Made by a program: the position numbers and the translations under genes. From positions 32,001-96,000 of the IMG/VR virus record IMGVR_UViG_3300027749_000051: a DNA stretch of 64,000 nucleotides; one strand, 5' to 3'. This DNA comes from a virus. How positions within the stretch are numbered: the stretch's first letter is position 1; the number at the start of each line of letters is the position of its first letter. The notes under the pieces are model-generated. The model was not told the DNA's origin. It saw nothing but the letters and a program-made list of their open reading frames with translations, and searched no databases. This document shows positions 3,661 through 60,214 of this stretch, in pieces.

Positions 3661-4551
3661 ATGATTAAAACACCTATAAGGTATGCGGGAGGAAAAAGCA
3701 AGGCGATTAAGATAATAACGCCATTTGTTGAGGGTATTGATAAAATAGTTTCACCATTTATTGGTGGGGGATCTTTGGAGGTTCATTGGGCATCAATGGG
3801 AAAACAAGTTATTGGATATGATTTATTTGATGTTCTTGTTAATTTTTGGAATGTTCTATTGAATAATAAGGGAGAATTGGTTGAGAAGTTAAGACAAATT
3901 AATCCAACATCTGGTGAATATACCCGAATCAAAGAGATATTGATGAAATGGGATAATACACAGGATATGTTGAAAGATTGGAAGACGGGATATTATAAAA
4001 GAGATGATGTAATTTCTTTGGATAGTATAACCGCGGCAGCTTATTATTATTTTAATCACAACACATCTTATGGTCCTGGTTATTTGGGTTGGGGATCATC
4101 TGTTTATTTACAACCTAAGAAATGGGATGATATGATTAGTAAGATATCCAAATTTGAATTACCTACTCTATCAGTGAATCAAGGAAGTTTTGAATCTATA
4201 TTACCGAACCATACTAACGATTTCTTATATTTGGATCCTCCATATTTCTTAGAGAAGGATGCTGACAATAAAATGTTCACAGGGATTTATCCGATGAGAA
4301 ATATACCAGTCCATCACAATGGATTTAATCACGAATTATTGAGAAATATGTTAAAGGATCACAAGGGCGGATTTGTCTTGTCTTATAATAATTGTGAAAC
4401 GATTAGAGATTATTATAGTGAGTTTGAGTTCCATTATCCAACATGGAATTACTCTATGGGTAACGGAGAAAAACGAATAGGTAAGAACAGAATAGAGGCG
4501 GGAATTACAAATACTAAAGACTCACATGAAATTTTAATCGTAAAACGATAA
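3661..4551 (+). CDS. Dam-like (D12 class) DNA adenine methyltransferase
   Basis: RYAGGKS, PFIGGGS, YLDPPY. Confidence 0.9.
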   Translation: MIKTPIRYAGGKSKAIKIITPFVEGIDKIVSPFIGGGSLEVHWASMGKQVIGYDLFDVLVNFWNVLLNNKGELVEKLRQINPTSGEYTRIKEILMKWDNTQDMLKDWKTGYYKRDDVISLDSITAAAYYYFNHNTSYGPGYLGWGSSVYLQPKKWDDMISKISKFELPTLSVNQGSFESILPNHTNDFLYLDPPYFLEKDADNKMFTGIYPMRNIPVHHNGFNHELLRNMLKDHKGGFVLSYNNCETIRDYYSEFEFHYPTWNYSMGNGEKRIGKNRIEAGITNTKDSHEILIVKR

Positions 4552-52947: not shown

Positions 52948-53322
52948 TTATTGATATTGTTCGTAACTCTTTTCTTCAGTTAAGTTAGACCCTGTCAATT
53001 CATTTATTTGTCGTTTGACTTCAGATCGTTTATCGTTAATGAAATAAACTGATCTTGCGGTTTGAATGAAATCGTCACCAAAATCTTTTGATCTTTCTAG
53101 ATCTCTGATATGGTCTTCAATGTCCCATAGTTGATTGTTTATCTTATACAATTCTTGGTAAAGAGGGTGAGTCTTCTCAATGATTGTGGCTACTGCAGAG
53201 TCCAATATTAAAAACTCTTTTTGTAGGTTTGTTAGTTTATCTACATTTGAGATACGACTAATTTTAATTTCTATAATAGATAGTTTATCTACTATTTCTC
53301 CGTTTGATACTTCAATATTCAT
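52948..53322 (-). CDS. DUF6165 family protein
   Basis: IEVSNGEIVDKLSIIEIK..LWDIED..R.VY..ND.R. Confidence 0.8.
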   Translation of the reverse strand: MNIEVSNGEIVDKLSIIEIKISRISNVDKLTNLQKEFLILDSAVATIIEKTHPLYQELYKINNQLWDIEDHIRDLERSKDFGDDFIQTARSVYFINDKRSEVKRQINELTGSNLTEEKSYEQYQ

Positions 53323-53326
53323 TTTA

Positions 53327-53857
53327 CTATGTTTTAGATTTATGATTTAATATTTCTTCAACCTTATAATCTTCCCAACTGCCAGCATCTATAGTTTTTT
53401 CTACCTTATGATTAAGGACATCTTCTATATCAGTTTCAGGAAAATTAAATACAACCACAGGTTTTTCTATTTTATAATCGAGGACATTATCTATGTTACG
53501 GTTATCTCTGCCTTGGAAAGATAAAGTTTTTTCTACCTTATGATTGAGGACATCTTCTACTTCCGATTCATCTATAATATTTCTATGTCGAGGTGTATCT
53601 ACTTTATAATTAAGGATATCTTCTACAAAAGAGGATAGGATAGGTTCAAACTCATTTCGTTCCATTGAAAATATGGTAAAAAAATCAGAGAAAAACCACC
53701 ATCTCCAATACAAGATTCCTCGTTTTTTATATTCTAAATACCAATACTTATTTTCTCTGTCAATAATCCATATGGAGTCTTCATATGGAATTATCTCAGT
53801 ATGTTTCAGATCATTATATAGTTTATCAAATATTATTTTCTTTAATCTGGGGTTCAT
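53327..53857 (-). CDS. array-gene paralog 1 (WWRW domain plus five degenerate 22-aa units)
   Basis: Shared ~75-aa N-domain; VEDILNxKV units at 66-nt period. Confidence 0.85.
   Translation of the reverse strand: MNPRLKKIIFDKLYNDLKHTEIIPYEDSIWIIDRENKYWYLEYKKRGILYWRWWFFSDFFTIFSMERNEFEPILSSFVEDILNYKVDTPRHRNIIDESEVEDVLNHKVEKTLSFQGRDNRNIDNVLDYKIEKPVVVFNFPETDIEDVLNHKVEKTIDAGSWEDYKVEEILNHKSKT
53328..53627 (-). repeat. in-frame 36+30 nt repeat-spacer array, 5 degenerate repeats, 4 spacers
   Basis: Repeats at 53592, 53526, 53460, 53394, 53328 (plus-strand starts). Confidence 0.75.
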
Positions 53858-53858
53858 T

Positions 53859-54408
53859 TTAATTAAGTATATTATCTACTTTAACAGGCCATGGGCAATA
53901 ATCTGCTTTTGCTGTATTTACCTTATGATTCAGTACATCGTCCAATATTTTGTAGTTCTCAACCAATGATTTCATAGATGTTTCTCCATTATGGTTAAGT
54001 ACATCTGCCGTCGGGTTTACGAATCCGCAATAACCGATCTTAGTTGCATCTACCTTATGATTAAGGATGTCTTCCTCTTTAGTGTAACCTGTTGTGTTTC
54101 GCCAAGTAGATATTGTTACTTTAGGGTTAAGGATGTCTTTCACCACTGGTGTTTGCGAATCGTTTGTAAAAAAGGATTTACTTACCTTATGATTAAGGAT
54201 GTTTTCCACCTTAAGATGAGTAAGAAAATCTATACCATTAGATGTACTTACCTTATGATTAAGGATGACTTCCACCGATGCGATGGCTGGACCAACACCA
54301 GTATCGGATGTGTTTACCTTATAATTAAGGATGTCTTCCACCAATGCAGAGAAAGCATTTGAAAGAAGAACAGATGTGCCTACCTTATGATTAAGGATGT
54401 CTTCCACC
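53859..54408 (-). CRISPR. CRISPR-like in-frame array: 8 full repeats plus a truncated one, 8 unique 30-nt spacers
   Basis: First repeat GGTGGAAGACATCCTTAATCATAAGGTAGGCACATC (54373-54408); strict 66-nt period; degenerates distally; no cas gene in window. Confidence 0.55.
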
Positions 54409-54638
54409 ATAGAAGTTAGAAATGGTTTATACTCATTTTGTTCCAATGAGAATAGTTGGAAAAAATTATTGAAAAACTCCCATCTCCACCATAATGTTCC
54501 TGATTTTTCAAATTCAAAATACCAGTACTTTTCTTTTCTATCAATAAACCATATCGCATTATTATATGGGATTATCTCCACATGTTTCAGATCGTTATAT
54601 AGTTTATCTAATATAATTTTTTTTAATCTCTCGTTCAT
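53859..54638 (-). CDS. array-gene paralog 2 (WWRW domain plus nine 22-aa units)
   Basis: Same N-domain; longest array. Confidence 0.88.
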   Translation of the reverse strand: MNERLKKIILDKLYNDLKHVEIIPYNNAIWFIDRKEKYWYFEFEKSGTLWWRWEFFNNFFQLFSLEQNEYKPFLTSMVEDILNHKVGTSVLLSNAFSALVEDILNYKVNTSDTGVGPAIASVEVILNHKVSTSNGIDFLTHLKVENILNHKVSKSFFTNDSQTPVVKDILNPKVTISTWRNTTGYTKEEDILNHKVDATKIGYCGFVNPTADVLNHNGETSMKSLVENYKILDDVLNHKVNTAKADYCPWPVKVDNILN

Positions 54639-54641
54639 AGT

Positions 54642-55109
54642 TTATATTTTATTTACCTTACGATTTAAGATTCTTTCTACCAATCCTTCAGGTGGAACTT
54701 CATCAAAGAATGTTGTTTTTACCTTACGATTTAAGATGTCTTCCACCCAGCCTTTGGCTTTACCTATGAAATTATTTGATGTATCTACCTTACGATTTAA
54801 GATGTCTTCCACCGGGTCGATCGATTGATATTCCCCATTGAAAGATGTATCTACCTTACGATTTAAGATGTCTTCCACCATATCTCGTATAAGTGGCTCA
54901 TACTCATCTCGTTCCAATGAAAACAGGTAGAAAAAATTATTGAAAAACTCCCATCTCCACCACAGAGTTCCATTTTTATTCAATTTAAAGTACCAGTATT
55001 TTTCATTTGGATCTATTGCCCATATATTGCCATCATCGACAATAATTTCGGAGCCCTTCATATCGTTCAAAAGTTTATCAAATATTATTTTCTTTATCCT
55101 GTCGTTCAT
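54642..55109 (-). CDS. array-gene paralog 3 (WWRW domain plus four 22-aa units)
   Basis: Same N-domain. Confidence 0.88.
   Translation of the reverse strand: MNDRIKKIIFDKLLNDMKGSEIIVDDGNIWAIDPNEKYWYFKLNKNGTLWWRWEFFNNFFYLFSLERDEYEPLIRDMVEDILNRKVDTSFNGEYQSIDPVEDILNRKVDTSNNFIGKAKGWVEDILNRKVKTTFFDEVPPEGLVERILNRKVNKI
54646..54879 (-). CRISPR. CRISPR-like in-frame array: 4 repeats, 3 spacers
   Basis: Two identical GGTGGAAGACATCTTAAATCGTAAGGTAGATACATC (54844, 54778), third ends AAAACAAC, fourth degenerate. Confidence 0.6.
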
Positions 55110-55128
55110 ATCATCTAAATTATCTTGG

Positions 55129-55159
55129 CAAAGATATTAAAAAAGATTAATACAACAAA
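55129..55159 (-). promoter_or_regulatory. Bacteroidota-type promoter driving the array-gene cluster
   Basis: Minus strand TTTG (55156-55159), 19 nt, TATCTTTG (55129-55136). Confidence 0.75.
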
Positions 55160-55173
55160 ATATTTTCAAGGAT

Positions 55174-55205
55174 ATTGTGTGATTGAATTAATTTTATTAT
55201 CTTTG
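55174..55205 (+). promoter_or_regulatory. divergent Bacteroidota-type promoter
   Basis: ATTG, 20 nt, TATCTTTG. Confidence 0.65.
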
Positions 55206-55245
55206 TGGAATAGAAAGTAAGTTATTAAATTAAAAGTTAAATAAT

Positions 55246-55407
55246 ATGTGGGTTAAGAAGAAGATTTTGGATCATTGGACTTATATTGAAAGAAAGACCA
55301 AAGTATTTGTTAGACGGGATTATCGTAATAACACCGTTGTGATTAATTTTATGGAAGGTGGTCCTTGTACTTTATATACTTATAAAGGTGAATGGATTGC
55401 GGGTTAA
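55246..55407 (+). CDS. 53-aa protein (not in ORF track)
   Basis: MWVKKKILDHWTYIERK...; first ORF after promoter. Confidence 0.55.
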   Translation: MWVKKKILDHWTYIERKTKVFVRRDYRNNTVVINFMEGGPCTLYTYKGEWIAG

Positions 55408-55428
55408 AAAAGAATTGGAGGAAAAGAA

Positions 55429-55980
55429 ATGAGCGGAGGACACTTTGATTACAAACAAAACGAAATCGGTTATATTGCCGATGAGATAGAAAGCACCATT
55501 GAAAGAAATGGTAAGGAAAAGACCCAAGAGGAATTAAGAGATGAAGGATGGTGTAATTCTGAATTTCATAATCAATATCCTGAAGATAAATTTCACTATA
55601 AATATCCGGATGATGTTATTGAGAAATTTAAAGAGGCTGTTAATTTATTAAGAAAAGCACAAATCTATGCTCACAGAATTGATAGGTTATTATCAGGAGA
55701 TGATGGAGAAGAATCATTTATTAAACGATTAAATGATGAATTGGATAAAATTGAGATTCCACTACCAAATGACGCGTTAATAGAGGCGGCACAACGATAT
55801 AAGGAAAATGTTAGTGCAGGAGCGCTTACATCATCTAGTAATGGTTTAACATTGTCACCATCAACTATTAGTGGAATATGGAGTAGTAGCACTACTACTT
55901 GGAAAGGTGGTTATGTCACAAATAACTTTGAATCTTATTATATGGGTGAGAATGGTAATAAACATATAAATAATAAATGA
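55429..55980 (+). CDS. hypothetical phage protein
   Basis: MSGGHFDY..DWLLSGDDGE-like motif (DRLLSGDDGEESF). Confidence 0.65.
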   Translation: MSGGHFDYKQNEIGYIADEIESTIERNGKEKTQEELRDEGWCNSEFHNQYPEDKFHYKYPDDVIEKFKEAVNLLRKAQIYAHRIDRLLSGDDGEESFIKRLNDELDKIEIPLPNDALIEAAQRYKENVSAGALTSSSNGLTLSPSTISGIWSSSTTTWKGGYVTNNFESYYMGENGNKHINNK

Positions 55981-56435
55981 AAACTCAGAAAGAATATCCT
56001 GAGACACACTTCAGGAGCAGTGAGGCGGAAAGAATTCACAATGAGGGTTATGAACTGATGCTCATTAATAATACTTTACCTTTTAACAACAGACCAGTTC
56101 TCGGAGATGCAAAACACGGATTTGTTAGTATGAGTTGGGATGCTTGGCATAAGAATAGGGATAGTATGAGACTTAAACGACTTACCAATCCTCAACTCCT
56201 CAACGGAGAAATTAAGAATGATAGAATCGTTTCATTATATAAAGGATGTAAGGTTCATCTAATGAATAAGGGTGGGACATACATTGTTAAATCATATGAT
56301 AATGAGGTGGCTGTGATCACTTGTCAGAGATGGGTTAACCAGAAAGAATGGGGACAAAGATACAGAGATACCTTAACAGTTCCAAGAAGTGAAATAAAAT
56401 GTCATTATGGGGGAACAAAATACGGCAAGTTGTAA
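55977..56435 (+). CDS. hypothetical protein
   Basis: Coupled ORF. Confidence 0.6.
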   Translation: MKTQKEYPETHFRSSEAERIHNEGYELMLINNTLPFNNRPVLGDAKHGFVSMSWDAWHKNRDSMRLKRLTNPQLLNGEIKNDRIVSLYKGCKVHLMNKGGTYIVKSYDNEVAVITCQRWVNQKEWGQRYRDTLTVPRSEIKCHYGGTKYGKL

Positions 56436-56479
56436 TATTTTTATTATATTTGTATAATTAATCATTAAATCTTTTAGAT

Positions 56480-56731
56480 ATGACCGAATCGGACAGTGCT
56501 ATTTTAGAAACACTTATTACAAAGTTATTAGAAGGAGTTGAATTAGAATCAAAAACAGAAACCGCGATTGGATATCACGGAAGTTCACAGGGAGAAGAGA
56601 TTACTTATACGATACATTATAATCCGTATCGTAGGACTTGGGAACCAAAAGAGTTTGCCTTAATGGGGCATGTGTTCTCAAAAATTAAACCAATAATCTT
56701 AAAAATTATAAATAAAGATGGGAATGTTTGA
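56480..56731 (+). CDS. hypothetical protein
   Basis: Follows TATATTTG at 56445-56452. Confidence 0.55.
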   Translation: MTESDSAILETLITKLLEGVELESKTETAIGYHGSSQGEEITYTIHYNPYRRTWEPKEFALMGHVFSKIKPIILKIINKDGNV

Positions 56732-57101
56732 TACACTTTACATCAATATAGACAAATTGCCTATATCTGATAAGGAAAAAGAAACTATCGGCAATGATAC
56801 CGAATGGCAGACCAAATCTTTTGATTGCGTCTTAACGGAGATATACATAACCGATCAGAACGAATTAAAGATCAATCGATGGAATTATGAGGATGTTCCA
56901 TTGGAAGACAGACCAAATCCACTTAAAGAAGGAATACTTGGATTTATGGGAAGCCTGAGAAGAGCCAATGAGAGATTGGAAATAATGTCTTATAATGGAT
57001 ATGTTAACTTTTATGGTAAAGGAGGAGATGATTGGTATGAGTTTAATGCCAAGTTTATTGATGGACTACTTCAAGGGATTGAGGGTGGAAAAATAGTTTA
57101 A
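56718..57101 (+). CDS. hypothetical phage protein
   Basis: MGMFD..WQTKSFDC..W.EF.A.F..G pattern. Confidence 0.65.
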   Translation: MGMFDTLYINIDKLPISDKEKETIGNDTEWQTKSFDCVLTEIYITDQNELKINRWNYEDVPLEDRPNPLKEGILGFMGSLRRANERLEIMSYNGYVNFYGKGGDDWYEFNAKFIDGLLQGIEGGKIV

Positions 57102-57106
57102 GGTTG

Positions 57107-57268
57107 ATGAAGCATAGTTTTTGGAGGATATGGGCAAAATCATTAGGGGAGAAAACAGGAGAGACCGATGAGGAAGCAGATAGAGTTGCGATGGTTAGAA
57201 CAATAATCTTAATGGTATACATTATAACCAATTTAGTTATAATCGCAGGAATAATTAGACACTGGTAA
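57107..57268 (+). CDS. 53-aa conserved small phage membrane protein (not in ORF track)
   Basis: WRIWAKSLGEK..ADRVA..RT..ITN...AGIIRHW. Confidence 0.7.
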   Translation: MKHSFWRIWAKSLGEKTGETDEEADRVAMVRTIILMVYIITNLVIIAGIIRHW

Positions 57269-57300
57269 TTAACCCTCACCCAAAAGGTGGGGGTTAATTA
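57268..57300. terminator. bidirectional terminator of CCTCACC/GGTGGGG family
   Basis: AACCCTCACC-caaaa-GGTGGGGGTT between convergent genes. Confidence 0.75.
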
Positions 57301-57561
57301 TGAGATAACTTTAACTGGCAACTTATATCCTTTTTTGAACCAAGCGGATATAACAATAAGGATTACATTATCAATGTAACCTTTTCCAAACTTCTTATTC
57401 AACTCGGACCTAACTATATCACTACAATACATTGTTGAGGTCTTAATATCAAATAAGAAATACTCGTTATGCCAGGTCTGCTCAACCTTATCATAGTAAA
57501 GGTATGGGAACCCAAATTTATCATCTATGAATTTAACTATGTGTTTTTCTATTGTTGTCAT
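57298..57561 (-). CDS. hypothetical protein
   Basis: 87-aa ORF. Confidence 0.55.
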   Translation of the reverse strand: MTTIEKHIVKFIDDKFGFPYLYYDKVEQTWHNEYFLFDIKTSTMYCSDIVRSELNKKFGKGYIDNVILIVISAWFKKGYKLPVKVIS

Positions 57562-57588
57562 ATATACAAATATAATATATTTATTAAT

Positions 57589-58110
57589 ATGAACTTACAA
57601 GAAAACATACACAGGATTAAGGAAATGATGGGGATTAATGAAAAGCATGATCTCCTGAATAAACCTATCAAAGATATTATAGACCAAGTGGGAGGATATG
57701 GAACAGGATTCAACACCGATGAAGACGCCATAGAAGAAATAGAATATGTGGTATCAAGTGATTTTCCTGAAGGTCTGAATAACATTCCAACTAAAGTAAT
57801 CTTATATAGAGTTATATTATTGGAAGATGGTAAATCCATTAACGAGGATCAGGTTGGGGAACATTTCATTTCGGATACAAGACATATAGATAGATCGTTC
57901 TTGGAAAAGATAGATATATGGGACAATTGGGATGCGGACAATTCCAAGTTATGGTTACTACAATGTGAAACGGATGGGGATAATATAGATATAGAAAGAA
58001 CATTAGGTAATAGAGTTCAATATCCTCGTGAGAATGAATTCACCCTGAAGAACGATAAAAAGATTAGGTTGATAAAGAAAAAGATACTTAATAAAGAACA
58101 GCTTAGATGA
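57589..58110 (+). CDS. MNLQENI-leader protein, ADP-ribosyltransferase-like fold
   Basis: Start 57589 after TATTTAT; LYR, HFIS, ENE pattern. Confidence 0.5.
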   Translation: MNLQENIHRIKEMMGINEKHDLLNKPIKDIIDQVGGYGTGFNTDEDAIEEIEYVVSSDFPEGLNNIPTKVILYRVILLEDGKSINEDQVGEHFISDTRHIDRSFLEKIDIWDNWDADNSKLWLLQCETDGDNIDIERTLGNRVQYPRENEFTLKNDKKIRLIKKKILNKEQLR

Positions 58111-58637
58111 AATACATAATTACTGAGAGACAATATAGAGTGATATCCGAAGAAGTTAATCCTCGCATCAAAGAAATTATCTTCAATAAGTTATTGAATG
58201 ATATGAAGGGTGTTGAGATTATTGAAGATAATGGTAGCATATGGGCAATAGATCCTGATGAGAAATACTGGTACTTTGAGTTGCAAGAAAACGGAACTTT
58301 ATGGTGGAGATGGGGATTTTTCAATAATTTTTTCAAGTTATTTTCAATAGAAAGAAATGAGTTTGAACCACTTATGCGTGAACTGGTGGAAGACATCTTG
58401 AATCGCAAGGTAGTCACATCACTTCTAGTGCAATTCCTTGGTGACCTAATGGTGGAAGACATCTTGAATCGCAAGGTAGTCACATCCCACAGCGGACAGA
58501 TTCACGTCCAAAGCCAGGTGGAAGACATCTTGAATCGCAAGGTAGTCACATCTAGTGGGCATGACCAAAGATTAACAATGTCAATAAAAGACATATTAAA
58601 TCGTAGGAATAAGATAACCAAAGATGAGAACTTTTAA
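58107..58637 (+). CDS. array-gene paralog 4 with added MKYIITE leader
   Basis: Same WWRW N-domain; near-identical segments to paralog 3. Confidence 0.88.
   Translation: MKYIITERQYRVISEEVNPRIKEIIFNKLLNDMKGVEIIEDNGSIWAIDPDEKYWYFELQENGTLWWRWGFFNNFFKLFSIERNEFEPLMRELVEDILNRKVVTSLLVQFLGDLMVEDILNRKVVTSHSGQIHVQSQVEDILNRKVVTSSGHDQRLTMSIKDILNRRNKITKDENF
58385..58618 (+). CRISPR. CRISPR-like in-frame array: three identical 36-nt repeats plus degenerate fourth, three 30-nt spacers
   Basis: GGTGGAAGACATCTTGAATCGCAAGGTAGTCACATC at 58385, 58451, 58517. Confidence 0.65.
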
Positions 58638-58640
58638 GAT

Positions 58641-58958
58641 ATGAAACTACAAGAGAACATAGACAGAATTAAACAAGTGATGGGAGTTATCAATGAAGAT
58701 AAACCATCAATCCATATTTTACGGAGATTACCTCAAATAGAGAGGGCATTAAATCAGACATTATATTATTTATCTCCTTGTGAATATGATGATGTGGAAT
58801 ATTATACTGAACATGTATTACACCAACTTAGGGAATATTTTGAAGATTATGAAGAAGAAGAAGAGGTTGAACCTTTTGCGGCAACAAATTATGTTGCAGA
58901 ATATTTATCATCTGAAATAGAAGAATATTACGATGACCGTAAAACAGAATGTGAATAA
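58641..58958 (+). CDS. MKLQENI-leader acidic protein
   Basis: Shared leader. Confidence 0.65.
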   Translation: MKLQENIDRIKQVMGVINEDKPSIHILRRLPQIERALNQTLYYLSPCEYDDVEYYTEHVLHQLREYFEDYEEEEEVEPFAATNYVAEYLSSEIEEYYDDRKTECE

Positions 58959-59022: not shown

Positions 59023-59712
59023 ATGAAACTACAAGAGAATATAGATAGGATAAAACAAGTGATGGGGATTATTACAGAATCACGACCAGGATTTTGTTTA
59101 CCGAAAGATTATACTCCAGGAACAAAATATGGAAGGGATGAGTTAGCTAAGATGTTTGTATGTTTTACAAAAGATCCGAAGAAGTTTCCATTATTGGCGG
59201 TTAAGGAATGGTTATTTCCACAATTACCTGGTGGAGGATTTACGCCCCAAGATCCAATGAGTATGAGTTATGGTCAACCATATACTTTTACTATGGAAAG
59301 AATGGCAAAAGTAGAAGATAAAAATACAAGAAATATCACAGTCGGAATAAAAACCATTGACCCAACTCAATTACCTGATGAAACAAAAAGATGGTTTAGT
59401 ATAAAACAAAAATCTCCAGGATTTCAAGATAGATTTGACTATCAGATAAATAAGATAAGGGAGAATGACTATGATACTACAGTTATAACACCTCAAGATG
59501 AGCCTATGGTTTTTGAGGTTATAAATAGAAAGTTATATATTCAAGAAGGGTGGCATAGGTTAATGGCGATCTTAATGTTATTGGAGAAGGGGGAAATAAT
59601 TCCTGATCAGGCTAAAGTATATGCTGTAACTGTATTTAGATCTCCCGATTTTAAGTTAAAAATAGTGGATAAACCAGAAGGCCTTTTTGAAAACATAAGA
59701 AATTACCAATAA
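59023..59712 (+). CDS. MKLQENI-leader protein with ParB/Srx-like motif
   Basis: LYIQEGWHRLMA resembles IxDGxHR. Confidence 0.55.
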   Translation: MKLQENIDRIKQVMGIITESRPGFCLPKDYTPGTKYGRDELAKMFVCFTKDPKKFPLLAVKEWLFPQLPGGGFTPQDPMSMSYGQPYTFTMERMAKVEDKNTRNITVGIKTIDPTQLPDETKRWFSIKQKSPGFQDRFDYQINKIRENDYDTTVITPQDEPMVFEVINRKLYIQEGWHRLMAILMLLEKGEIIPDQAKVYAVTVFRSPDFKLKIVDKPEGLFENIRNYQ

Positions 59713-59734: not shown

Positions 59735-60214
59735 ATGAAACTACAAGAGAATATAGATAGGATAAAACAAGTGATGGGGATTAATGAAACCTTTGACGCA
59801 GGGGTGGAACCAACTCTTAGAGACACCTATAACGAAGATGGGGCAAAAGTATATTCATACATCCTTCCGTCAAAGAAAGATGAAAAAGATTACATCATCA
59901 ACTTAAAGTTCTATAAGGAGTTTAAGGACCCGAAAATCAAAGATACATATAAAGATGTTATGGTAATAGATTTTAATCTTGGGGCAGGGACTTATTACAA
60001 TACCAACCTTAATGAAGTATTTTATATCTTTGCTTCAATCAATAAACTTATAGAGAAGTATAAGAAGAAGTTCCAATATCTTATGGGTTATTCAAACAAA
60101 GATAGATTGTCCTTATATAAGAAAGCATTGTCAAGAGCAAATTATTTGGAACTGGTAGATGAGGGATCACATCATATCATATATAAGAACAAAGATTATT
60201 CACGATGGTTCTAA
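59735..60214 (+). CDS. MKLQENI-leader hypothetical protein
   Basis: First 49 nt identical to 59023 gene. Confidence 0.65.
   Translation: MKLQENIDRIKQVMGINETFDAGVEPTLRDTYNEDGAKVYSYILPSKKDEKDYIINLKFYKEFKDPKIKDTYKDVMVIDFNLGAGTYYNTNLNEVFYIFASINKLIEKYKKKFQYLMGYSNKDRLSLYKKALSRANYLELVDEGSHHIIYKNKDYSRWF

Follow-up and report, generated by a model that had tools for sequence, protein, structure and literature searches.

Four paralogous genes lie in the window, the whole stretch of 64,000 nucleotides analyzed here, which is taken from a 125-kb record of an uncultured lake jumbo phage. Each gene encodes an 85-aa domain and then continues in frame with units of exactly 36 conserved and 30 unrelated bases. 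The genes and the features discussed below are as follows.

53327-53857, minus strand: paralog 1 gene, 176 aa; its array is degenerate, with repeats detectable at 53328-53363 and 53526-53627
53859-54638, minus strand: paralog 2 gene, 259 aa, with six DNA-level repeats inside 54043-54408 and further degenerate units running on to the stop
54642-55109, minus strand: paralog 3 gene, 155 aa, with four DNA-level repeats inside 54646-54879 (open reading frame and repeat scan)
55129-55136, minus strand: TAnnTTTG element, 20 nt upstream of the paralog 3 start
58107-58637, plus strand: paralog 4 gene, 176 aa (open reading frame and translation)
58385-58552, plus strand: paralog 4 array, with 36-nt repeats at 58385-58420, 58451-58486 and 58517-58552
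58421-58450 and 58487-58516, plus strand: paralog 4 inserts 1 and 2, 30 nt each
58553-58582 and 58583-58618, plus strand: paralog 4 insert 3, and a last, degenerate repeat extending into the stop region

In paralog 4, a 17-aa extension precedes the conserved N-terminal domain and the in-frame array, whose three repeat copies are 100% identical, and the same architecture is found in 35 homologues. The AlphaFold model of this protein has a pLDDT of about 80 at residues 17-100 and below 50 across the array. The family is abundant, with at least 275 confirmed relatives among the 597 metagenome pattern matches listed, and 42 of its loci are found in IMG/VR on contigs of up to 309 kb, with several copies per genome. 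Apart from a metallophosphoesterase and a GT2, its conserved neighbor genes encode only small unknown proteins, and none of them is a protease, a cyclase or another maturase. The record from which the window comes is 42% complete. Neither it nor any of five related jumbo-phage records, of which one is complete, encodes Cas1 or Cas13b, and in the positive control for the Cas13b search four of five bacterial genomes scored above the cut-off.

The TAnnTTTG motif is a mark of Bacteroidota promoters. The element upstream of paralog 3 resembles a −7 box of this type and may be the promoter of a paralog 3-2-1 operon. Such sites number 118 in the window against 95 ± 10 expected, a count reached by 2 of 100 shuffles. 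A −33 TTG element has also been described for Bacteroidota promoters (PMC8092290).

Geometry, turnover and coding constraint of the arrays

The repeat is exactly 36 nt long and the insert exactly 30 nt, and the boundary of the repeat is set at the DNA level. Identity between adjacent units is 0.66-1.0 across the 36 positions and falls abruptly to 0.21-0.32 across the 30 that follow. The first base of the repeat is the third base of the preceding codon, the 36/30 boundaries cut through codons, and a G is invariant at a free wobble position. Among related loci, the interval is 66 nt in 691 of 726 cases, and inserts of 29 or 31 nt are almost never seen in the phage arrays.

The 366 inserts are mutually unrelated. 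Their pairwise identity (7.96/30) is at the random level (7.76 by chance), whereas the repeats remain 70-100% identical, unlike in an ordinary tandem-repeat protein, in which the units have diverged from one ancestor and their variable parts are related to each other. The GC content is 41-43% in the inserts, 32% in the loci and 29% in the domain; within the inserts it is flat across codon positions, and their amino-acid make-up looks random.

About 120 related loci show the behavior of a CRISPR array. Inserts held in common are colinear in 89 of 91 array pairs, and novelty is confined to the 5′ end in 29 pairs and to the 3′ end in 5. The peptide of insert 3 in paralog 4 is also present in the homologues P0004 and L043, whose domain-proximal ends differ, and the relative L046 has the distal units of paralog 2 but three different domain-proximal ones. 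The polarity of growth toward the domain end is a bias rather than a rule: of the unique units, 240 are at the 5′ end, 156 are at the 3′ end and 147 are internal, and arrays that have gained or lost units internally, or are mosaics, occur often. The mismatch count against the first repeat climbs monotonically with the unit index (2.3, 3.3, 4.8, 5.8, 6.1 and 9.9 for units 1-6) and is 11.7 in the terminal repeat. The polarized growth, leader-proximal repeat duplication and distal repeat decay by which a CRISPR array is recognized are all found in the phage arrays.

The arrays are also kept as reading frames. Repeat intervals are open in frame in 723 of 726 cases and 725 of 726 repeat spacings are divisible by 3; in the bacterial type VI-B arrays used for comparison, 25% of the spacers are not multiples of 3 and 75% are 30 nt. 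Judged by their substitutions, the inserted peptides are under purifying selection: 57% of the changes within inserts held in common are synonymous, compared with 24% expected (P = 8×10−10). At the nucleotide level, the repeat termini have an identity of 0.89-0.94 at four-fold synonymous sites when distant clades are compared, as against 0.3-0.4 in the domain, and no extra conservation was detected in the 60 leader-like codons that precede the first repeat.

Likeness to Cas13b-associated repeats

A first-pass annotation of the locus had proposed that the repeats resemble the direct repeats of Bacteroidota type VI-B (Cas13b) arrays, and had named in advance a comparison with composition-matched shuffles as the check. 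The resemblance held up against repeats adjoining Cas13b genes found in this analysis, the Cas13b neighbors of which were verified. When the phage genome was scored with a weight matrix built from bacterial Cas13b-type repeats only, the phage repeats were the top 10 of 250,238 windows, all in register and in gene sense, i.e., the coding strand carries the crRNA sense. The highest score in the genome (17.8 bits) belongs to repeat 3 of paralog 3 (54712-54747, minus strand), which does end in the 14-mer quoted by the annotation and likened there to the end of the Prevotella buccae repeat. The inner 27 nt alone reach a shuffle z of 2.5-4.5 against the matrix in 33 of 35 variants. The phage repeats are identical to the Cas13b-adjacent repeats at 15-23 of 36 positions (mean 19-21/36; shuffles 9.2-9.6, P < 5×10−5), and the repeat of paralog 4 to six of them at 15-22 of 36 (shuffles 9.2 ± 2.0). 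The annotation had put the match to the Bergeyella zoohelcum Cas13b repeat at 22 of 36, and the top values obtained here, 22-23, are similar. At 9-10 mismatches, the nearest bacterial repeats all belong to the VI-B class, and Cas9-associated repeats are much less similar. The highest identity to any bacterial repeat compared is 26-27/36, and no array with a near-identical repeat was present in 120 bacterial arrays or 151 sampled genomes. Type VI-B repeats have complementary ends, 5′-GUUG and CAAC-3′. The 5′ end of the phage repeat is always GGUG, and the 3′ end is CAAC in most variants, CATC in the window and CACC in three.

The hairpin that had been described for the paralog 4 repeat is indeed its RNAfold minimum (pairs 1-36, 2-35 as G·U, 3-34 and 4-33; 8-31, 9-30 and 10-29; 11-27 to 16-22), and has the two-stem shape of Cas13b-adjacent repeats. 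At −9.2 kcal/mol it has a z of −2.45, with 5 of 200 dinucleotide shuffles folding as well. However, this hairpin is an outlier, and the fold is not conserved thermodynamically across the family. The repeats of paralogs 2 and 3 fold weakly (z of −0.3 and −0.5), the mean z is −0.24 in 35 family variants and −1.98 in bacterial VI-B repeats, and z < −2 is reached by none of the 35 variants but by 12 of 20 bacterial VI-B repeats. With the 5′ end always GGUG, 26 of 34 variants have lost the second terminal pair (2-35), and the poly-U open loop of VI-B repeats is absent from the phage repeats. Some weak potential for pairing is still left in the hairpin register, in which 75.6% of cells pair, compared with 28-55% when the partners are slid, and six pairs carry changes on both sides family-wide.

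Origin of the inserts

Our leading explanation, with a probability of about 0.45, is that the phage carries the Bacteroidota 36-nt/30-nt class of CRISPR repeats in an in-frame version, nearest to VI-B, and that host Cas1-Cas2 writes the inserts in trans. The gene is laid out like a VI-B array, with the domain coding sequence in the place of the leader, followed by repeat-insert units in crRNA sense. A new unit would arise by the insertion of an unrelated 30-bp fragment beside the domain and duplication of the first repeat. We infer that host Cas1-Cas2, acting in trans, is the most likely inserting agent because the phages are without cas genes. Recombination inside the repeats would then delete and shuffle units, and selection on the protein would let only inserts survive that have no stop and keep the frame, the resulting 10-aa peptides then being conserved. 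The product would be a small folded domain with a hypervariable tail in which constant segments of 12 aa alternate with variable ones of 10 aa. The anatomy of the genes, the likeness to VI-B repeats, the turnover of the arrays and selection at the protein level are shown by the data above, and the identity of the inserting machine and the function of the protein are inferred.

That host adaptation machinery may act on these genes had also been suggested in the first-pass annotation, and several observations lend it indirect support: the fixed-length unrelated inserts, the DNA-level boundary, the domain-proximal novelty, the decay of the repeats, their constrained termini, the VI-B geometry and orientation, and the lack of Cas1 and Cas13b in the phage records searched. 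The search for protospacers counts against it. None was found in 1 Mb of related loci or three whole genomes of the phage group, where the best insert match (17/17) was the same as in the shuffled control, and none above shuffled controls was found in 2.3 Gb of cultured phages or 401 Bacteroidota genomes. Other points against it are the GGTG start, the missing poly-U loop and the mostly weak folding of the repeats, the incomplete polarity of growth, the leader-like codons without extra conservation, the lack of a near-identical repeat in the bacterial arrays and genomes compared, and the fact that no CRISPR array is known to be translated.

A somewhat less probable alternative is that the product is a hypervariable repeat protein and nothing else, with 22-aa cassettes that come from a non-CRISPR phage mechanism and are swapped by homologous recombination in the constant DNA, so that the Cas13b likeness and the 36/30 geometry would be coincidence or convergence. 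The strictly kept frame, the purifying selection on the insert peptides, the frequency of internal changes and mosaics and the lack of a thermodynamically conserved hairpin all agree with such a protein, as does the failure to find protospacers, cas genes or a host link in the collections and phage records searched. However, selection on a protein cannot account for the invariant wobble G or the sharp, codon-offset 36/30 boundary, it leaves unexplained why four-fold sites are conserved more strongly at the repeat termini, and the VI-B match in register and sense is far above shuffles. Moreover, we know of no non-CRISPR process that inserts fixed-length unrelated fragments between duplicated repeats. 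The genes might also encode multi-core precursor peptides of the cyanobactin (RiPP) type, in which a leader domain precedes hypervariable cores, each bordered by constant recognition segments, and the cores are excised and set free. Cyanobactin precursors do have a leader and multi-core layout with identical DNA flanks, similar to the leader-like domain and the repeated constant and hypervariable segments seen here, and purifying selection on the cores would fit as well. Yet none of the conserved neighbors is a protease, cyclase or other maturase, and neither the origin of new cores nor the VI-B likeness of the repeats would be explained; such peptides are very improbable.

A role of the mRNA itself, which the annotation had raised as a crRNA mimic or guide, seems improbable as well. 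Host Cas13b would cut the transcript at the repeats, producing either a Racr-like decoy that soaks up Cas13b or mini-array guides against rivals or host transcripts, with translation being secondary. The crRNA sense of the repeats on the coding strand, the two-stem shape of the paralog 4 repeat and the family-wide enrichment of register pairing with its six double changes point in this direction. Surveys for Racrs have reported candidates in every CRISPR type except VI but masked open reading frames before searching, and elements inside a reading frame would therefore be missed. On the other hand, the scarcity of stable folds, the broken second terminal pair and the missing poly-U loop argue against an RNA function, the inserts have no match in related phages, cultured phages or sampled Bacteroidota, and an open frame, spacing in multiples of 3 and conserved insert peptides are not needed for it. 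With selection clearly acting on the protein, crRNA mimicry is plausible as at most a secondary role of well-folding variants such as paralog 4.

Lake Bacteroidota jumbo phages could possibly use host Cas1-Cas2 as a diversity generator that turns random 30-bp fragments into 10-aa peptides, of which the useful ones are kept, although we hold this only tentatively. In this reading the phage gene would mimic a VI-B leader and repeat, and a heritable peptide library would be built with host immune hardware. If host Cas1-Cas2 does fill the array, the virus would turn a bacterial immune memory step into a generator of protein diversity, and this would be a new diversity mechanism beside diversity-generating retroelements and cassette recombination.

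Comparison with known CRISPR-related systems

To our knowledge, no translated CRISPR array is known, arrays being known only as non-coding templates of guide RNAs. Here, in contrast, the array stays open as a reading frame, with its inserts conserved as peptides; for the combination of CRISPR geometry, CRISPR-like growth and Cas13b-like repeats that can nonetheless be read as protein, we found no published description. VI-B arrays are defined by a 36-nt repeat and 30-nt spacers, and those compared here include the arrays that adjoin the Cas13b genes of Labilibaculum euxinus, Chryseobacterium carnipullorum and Mesonia hippocampi (loci L144, L171 and L208). The phage arrays share with them the 36-nt repeat and 30-nt insert, the conserved termini and the GGTA...ACAAC 3′ part of the repeat, as well as the sense orientation relative to transcription, a variable end beside the leader-side sequence, a degenerate terminal repeat and the lack of their own cas1 and cas2. 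They differ in sitting inside a translated gene, with frame and insert peptides under selection, unlike a non-coding array that is processed into crRNAs. Their repeats begin with GGTG instead of the bacterial GTTG, the poly-U loop is absent and the hairpin mostly lost. They are also phage-borne, with no Cas13b nearby in the phage records searched.

Viral mini-CRISPR arrays, solitary repeat units (SRUs) and Racrs likewise bring CRISPR-type repeats into viruses without cas genes and are presumed to use or block host Cas proteins (PMC6858448, PMC10651486). Those elements, however, are non-coding and closely match the host repeat (by at least 90% in the SRU survey), SRUs and Racrs lie behind a promoter, and no case for type VI is known, whereas the phage arrays are coding and about 60-75% like known repeats; with repeats inside open reading frames and a top bacterial identity of 26-27/36, they are not assigned to this class. 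Nor are they assigned to the mini-arrays of interviral conflict, the spacers of which match related viruses, unlike the phage inserts in the 1 Mb of related loci and three genomes, where matches stay at the level of the shuffled control. The family is invisible to surveys that mask open reading frames before the repeat search.

Two further systems bear on the proposed insertion step. In engineered CRISPR adaptation reporters, which are artificial laboratory constructs, spacer integration in a coding sequence alters the reading frame, and integration can be coupled to expression of a reporter protein (PMC5583386). In Flavobacterium columnare, the VI-B array, for which leader-to-array transcription has been reported (PMC8092290), is filled in trans by the Cas1/Cas2 module of a II-C locus (Hoikkala et al. 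2021, PMC8092290). Lacking adaptation genes of its own, this array gains 30-nt spacers at its leader end through the machinery of another locus, which is shared despite differing leader and repeat sequences (PMC8092290). There, the spacers enter a non-coding array on the chromosome of the very cell that supplies the machinery, whereas the putative acceptor here would be a gene of the infecting phage.

Array genes and their genomic setting

The four array genes of the window share one plan, and further copies lie past the window's end in the same record. Each encodes a conserved domain of ~85 amino acids followed by 22-residue units, each with 12 constant and 10 variable positions; counted in DNA, a unit is exactly 36 + 30 nt.

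Array genes in the window
53327-53857, minus strand, paralog 1
53859-54638, minus strand, paralog 2
54642-55109, minus strand, paralog 3
58107-58637, plus strand, paralog 4

Between adjacent units, identity is 0.66-1.0 over the 36 repeat positions and falls abruptly to 0.21-0.32 over the following 30, the insert. The first base of the repeat is the third-position G of the preceding codon, and its last base is position two of the final Thr/Ser codon. Since a free wobble base cannot be fixed by protein selection alone, the repeat unit is defined at the DNA level. Fused forms were also observed. One paralog past the window's end (genome 105188-106066) carries a ~130-aa Lys/Cys-rich C-terminal tail, which is also present in a distant relative on a 197-kb contig (proteins P0014 and P0025 show this tail), and proteins P0002 and P0003 each consist of two domain-plus-array modules fused in tandem in one ORF.

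No match for the family was found in Pfam, PHROGs or the protein atlas, and its homologues are confined to metagenomes and uncultured phages. A single-protein query against viral contigs returned no match, and an alignment query was needed to recover homologues. At least 275 relatives were confirmed among the 597 metagenome pattern matches listed, and the loci compared were 42 from IMG/VR, whose contigs reach 309 kb, and 80 from metagenomes, chiefly of lakes. AlphaFold predicts a small alpha/beta domain with confidence (pLDDT ~80) and a low-confidence array tail. A PDB search with the domain matched no solved fold, and because the best Z was only 4.9, the domain was given no fold; BFVD matches were family members only, from uncultured Caudovirales phages. 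In two related jumbo-phage records, array genes lie within 10 kb of contig ends.

Array genes near contig ends
502-10149, record G001
3884-3985 and 308093-309176, record G002

The window spans bases 32001-96000 of a linear IMG/VR virus record of 125,154 bp with 32.6% GC. CheckV estimates the completeness of the record at 42%, thus it represents part of a jumbo-phage genome. The TAnnTTTG motif is a mark of Bacteroidota promoters. Its mild enrichment in the window (118 elements vs 95 +/- 10 expected) is a hint, not proof, of a Bacteroidota host; the motif scan of the window placed one element 20 nt upstream of paralog 3.

Several neighbouring features were observed. A gene for a DUF6165 protein (52948-53322, minus strand; E 3.7e-13) lies directly downstream of paralog 1 and does not recur as a conserved neighbour of the array genes at other loci. 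Four otherwise unrelated neighbouring genes begin with a near-identical N-terminal peptide of ~16 aa (MKLQENI...MG), and the DNA of these gene starts is 78-95% identical over 59 nt. As a guess only, the peptide might be a signal common to the four proteins, either a propeptide or a targeting sequence, e.g., for the capsid. A different extension, of 17 aa, is common to paralog 4 and its orthologues. Between convergent genes ending at 57101 (plus strand) and 57298 (minus strand), there is a G+C-rich inverted repeat (57265-57300) that looks like a two-way terminator.

Starts of genes with the MKLQENI...MG peptide
57589-57640
58641-58690
59023-59072
59735-59784

Translation and turnover of the arrays

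With repeats located on DNA alone, 723 of 726 adjacent repeat intervals are open in frame, the exceptions being two stops and one frameshift. Repeats are spaced by 66 nt in 691 of these intervals, by 72 nt in 19 and by 63 nt in 10; in bacterial VI-B-class (Cas13b-type) arrays, 25% of spacers have a length not divisible by three. Stops make up 4-8% of codons in the other five insert frames. Furthermore, 43 of the 75 substitutions in shared inserts are synonymous (57% vs 24% expected, P = 8e-10). The open frames and the synonymous excess show that the arrays are translated and that the inserted peptides matter.

The 366 distinct inserts are no more similar to one another than random sequences. 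Their GC content of 41-43% (vs 32% for the loci and 29% for the domain) is flat across codon positions, and their amino-acid make-up is random-looking. From composition and similarity, the inserts look like foreign or arbitrary DNA and not like diverged copies. Mutagenesis of the DGR type was rejected as their source, because the inserts are mutually unrelated and are not A-mutated copies.

The order of shared inserts is the same in 89 of 91 related array pairs. Differences are confined to the end beside the domain in 29 pairs and to the distal end in five, and internal gains, losses and mosaic arrays occur frequently as well. Successive repeats depart more and more from the first (2.3, 3.3, 4.8, 5.8, 6.1 and 9.9 mismatches by unit index), and decay peaks in the terminal repeat (11.7). 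Relatives that differ in their proximal units share the distal insert of paralog 4 or, likewise, the distal units of paralog 2. Among distant clades, four-fold synonymous sites are 0.89-0.94 identical at the repeat termini vs 0.3-0.4 in the domain, and the repeat middle is at background, which places a nucleotide-level constraint at the termini. These termini are the portions that resemble VI-B repeats.

Likeness to Cas13b repeats and the hairpin

Bacterial reference repeats were collected by scanning genomes for two 36-nt units with published VI-B ends, which gave 120 loci. Cas13b (NF038190) adjoins the arrays at Labilibaculum, Muribaculaceae and Prevotella loci and is present in the same genome for four further arrays; a second repeat class from the scan adjoins Cas9. 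In the inner 27 nt, 13-16 positions of the phage consensus agree with the VI-B class vs 4-12 with the Cas9 class. A weight matrix of 20 VI-B-class repeats was run on both strands of the whole phage record, and the top 10 of 250,238 windows were family repeats, in register and in gene sense, with a best score of 17.8 bits vs a mean of -42.9 (SD 10.9). With the termini removed from the matrix, 33 of 35 phage variants still score above shuffles (z 2.5-4.5). The first-pass annotation had proposed a likeness of the repeats to those of VI-B, and the comparison bears it out: in paralog 4, 15-22 of the 36 repeat positions (mean 19.3) agree with six Cas13b-adjacent repeats vs 9.2 +/- 2.0 for shuffles (P < 5e-5), and repeat 3 of paralog 3 shares 16-23. 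The bacterial repeats closest to any phage variant have 9-10 mismatches over 36 positions, and every one is of the VI-B class. Among the bacterial sequences sampled, none had a repeat nearly identical to those of the phage; a covariance model built from the phage repeats on sequence alone matched 151 Bacteroidota genomes no better than chance, and Rfam holds no CRISPR-DR family matching the repeats. The annotation's refuting condition, similarity no higher than in shuffles, is contradicted by these scores, and judged by sequence, the likeness to VI-B repeats is real but partial.

Two other candidate repeats were set aside. The intergenic 36-mer at 57103-57138 (plus strand), the next best matrix match after the family repeats (11.2 bits), does not fold (z +0.89) and is thus probably a chance match as a solitary repeat. 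An Rfam CRISPR-DR6 match at 54440-54475 has an E value of 4.7 and lies outside the repeats. Separately, VI-B-class 36/30 arrays at L187 / L204 (Chlorobiota MAG) and L140 (Ferruginibacter MAG) adjoin large proteins with weak matches to the Cas13b model (107 and 32 bits, cut-off 150 bits), which may be divergent Cas13b-like effectors.

The same annotation had described a hairpin. The paralog 4 repeat does fold as described (-9.2 kcal/mol, z -2.45), with the two-stem outline of Cas13b-adjacent repeats, but it is exceptional. For the repeats of paralogs 2 and 3, folding energies are -4.8 and -3.9 kcal/mol (z about -0.3 and -0.5, respectively), and the variants common in lakes either fold poorly or pair in a different register. 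Among 35 phage variants, z averages -0.24 and never falls below -2; bacterial VI-B repeats average -1.98, with 12 of 20 under -2. With the paralog 4 structure imposed on all variants, 75.6% of cells pair vs 28-55% with slid partners, and both sides change in six pairs; G.U pairs are numerous, pairing is mostly absent at three positions, and a single member of the set supplied the structure. We read the family-wide pairing as a remnant or a weak constraint, not as a maintained Cas13b handle.

Explanations for the inserts

Neither Cas1 nor Cas13b is encoded in the record or in five related jumbo-phage records (one complete), in a search whose positive control gave the expected detection. No protospacer of the inserts was found in related loci, three whole phage genomes, cultured phages or 401 Bacteroidota genomes. 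A 33-nt match to Flavobacterium phages (E 0.3) is at the junction of paralogs 2 and 1, outside the inserts, and a 40-nt match to one Bacteroidota genome is at a gene junction. Given no matches in the phage group, interviral targeting by the inserts is rejected for the genomes tested.

A role as precursor peptides appears the least probable explanation, as the conserved neighbours of the family include no RiPP maturase; they include no cas gene either. A Cas13b decoy or guide role is also improbable, though less so. The Racr survey reported solitary repeats for all types but VI, with ORFs masked before the search. A serious, if doubtful, rival is a cassette system acting at the protein level only, whose inserts are placed by a mechanism other than those known. 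Tentatively, we favor a reading in which host adaptation acts on a phage gene mimicking the leader and repeat of VI-B, and selection operates on the protein (probability about 0.45). We found no description of translated CRISPR-like arrays in the literature. To our knowledge, no process other than CRISPR adaptation separates duplicated 36-bp repeats by unrelated fragments of one fixed length, added mostly at one end. Among CRISPR classes, VI-B alone routinely relies on Cas1-Cas2 supplied in trans, and it is the repeats of this class that the phage repeats resemble, thus the host-adaptation reading is favored.
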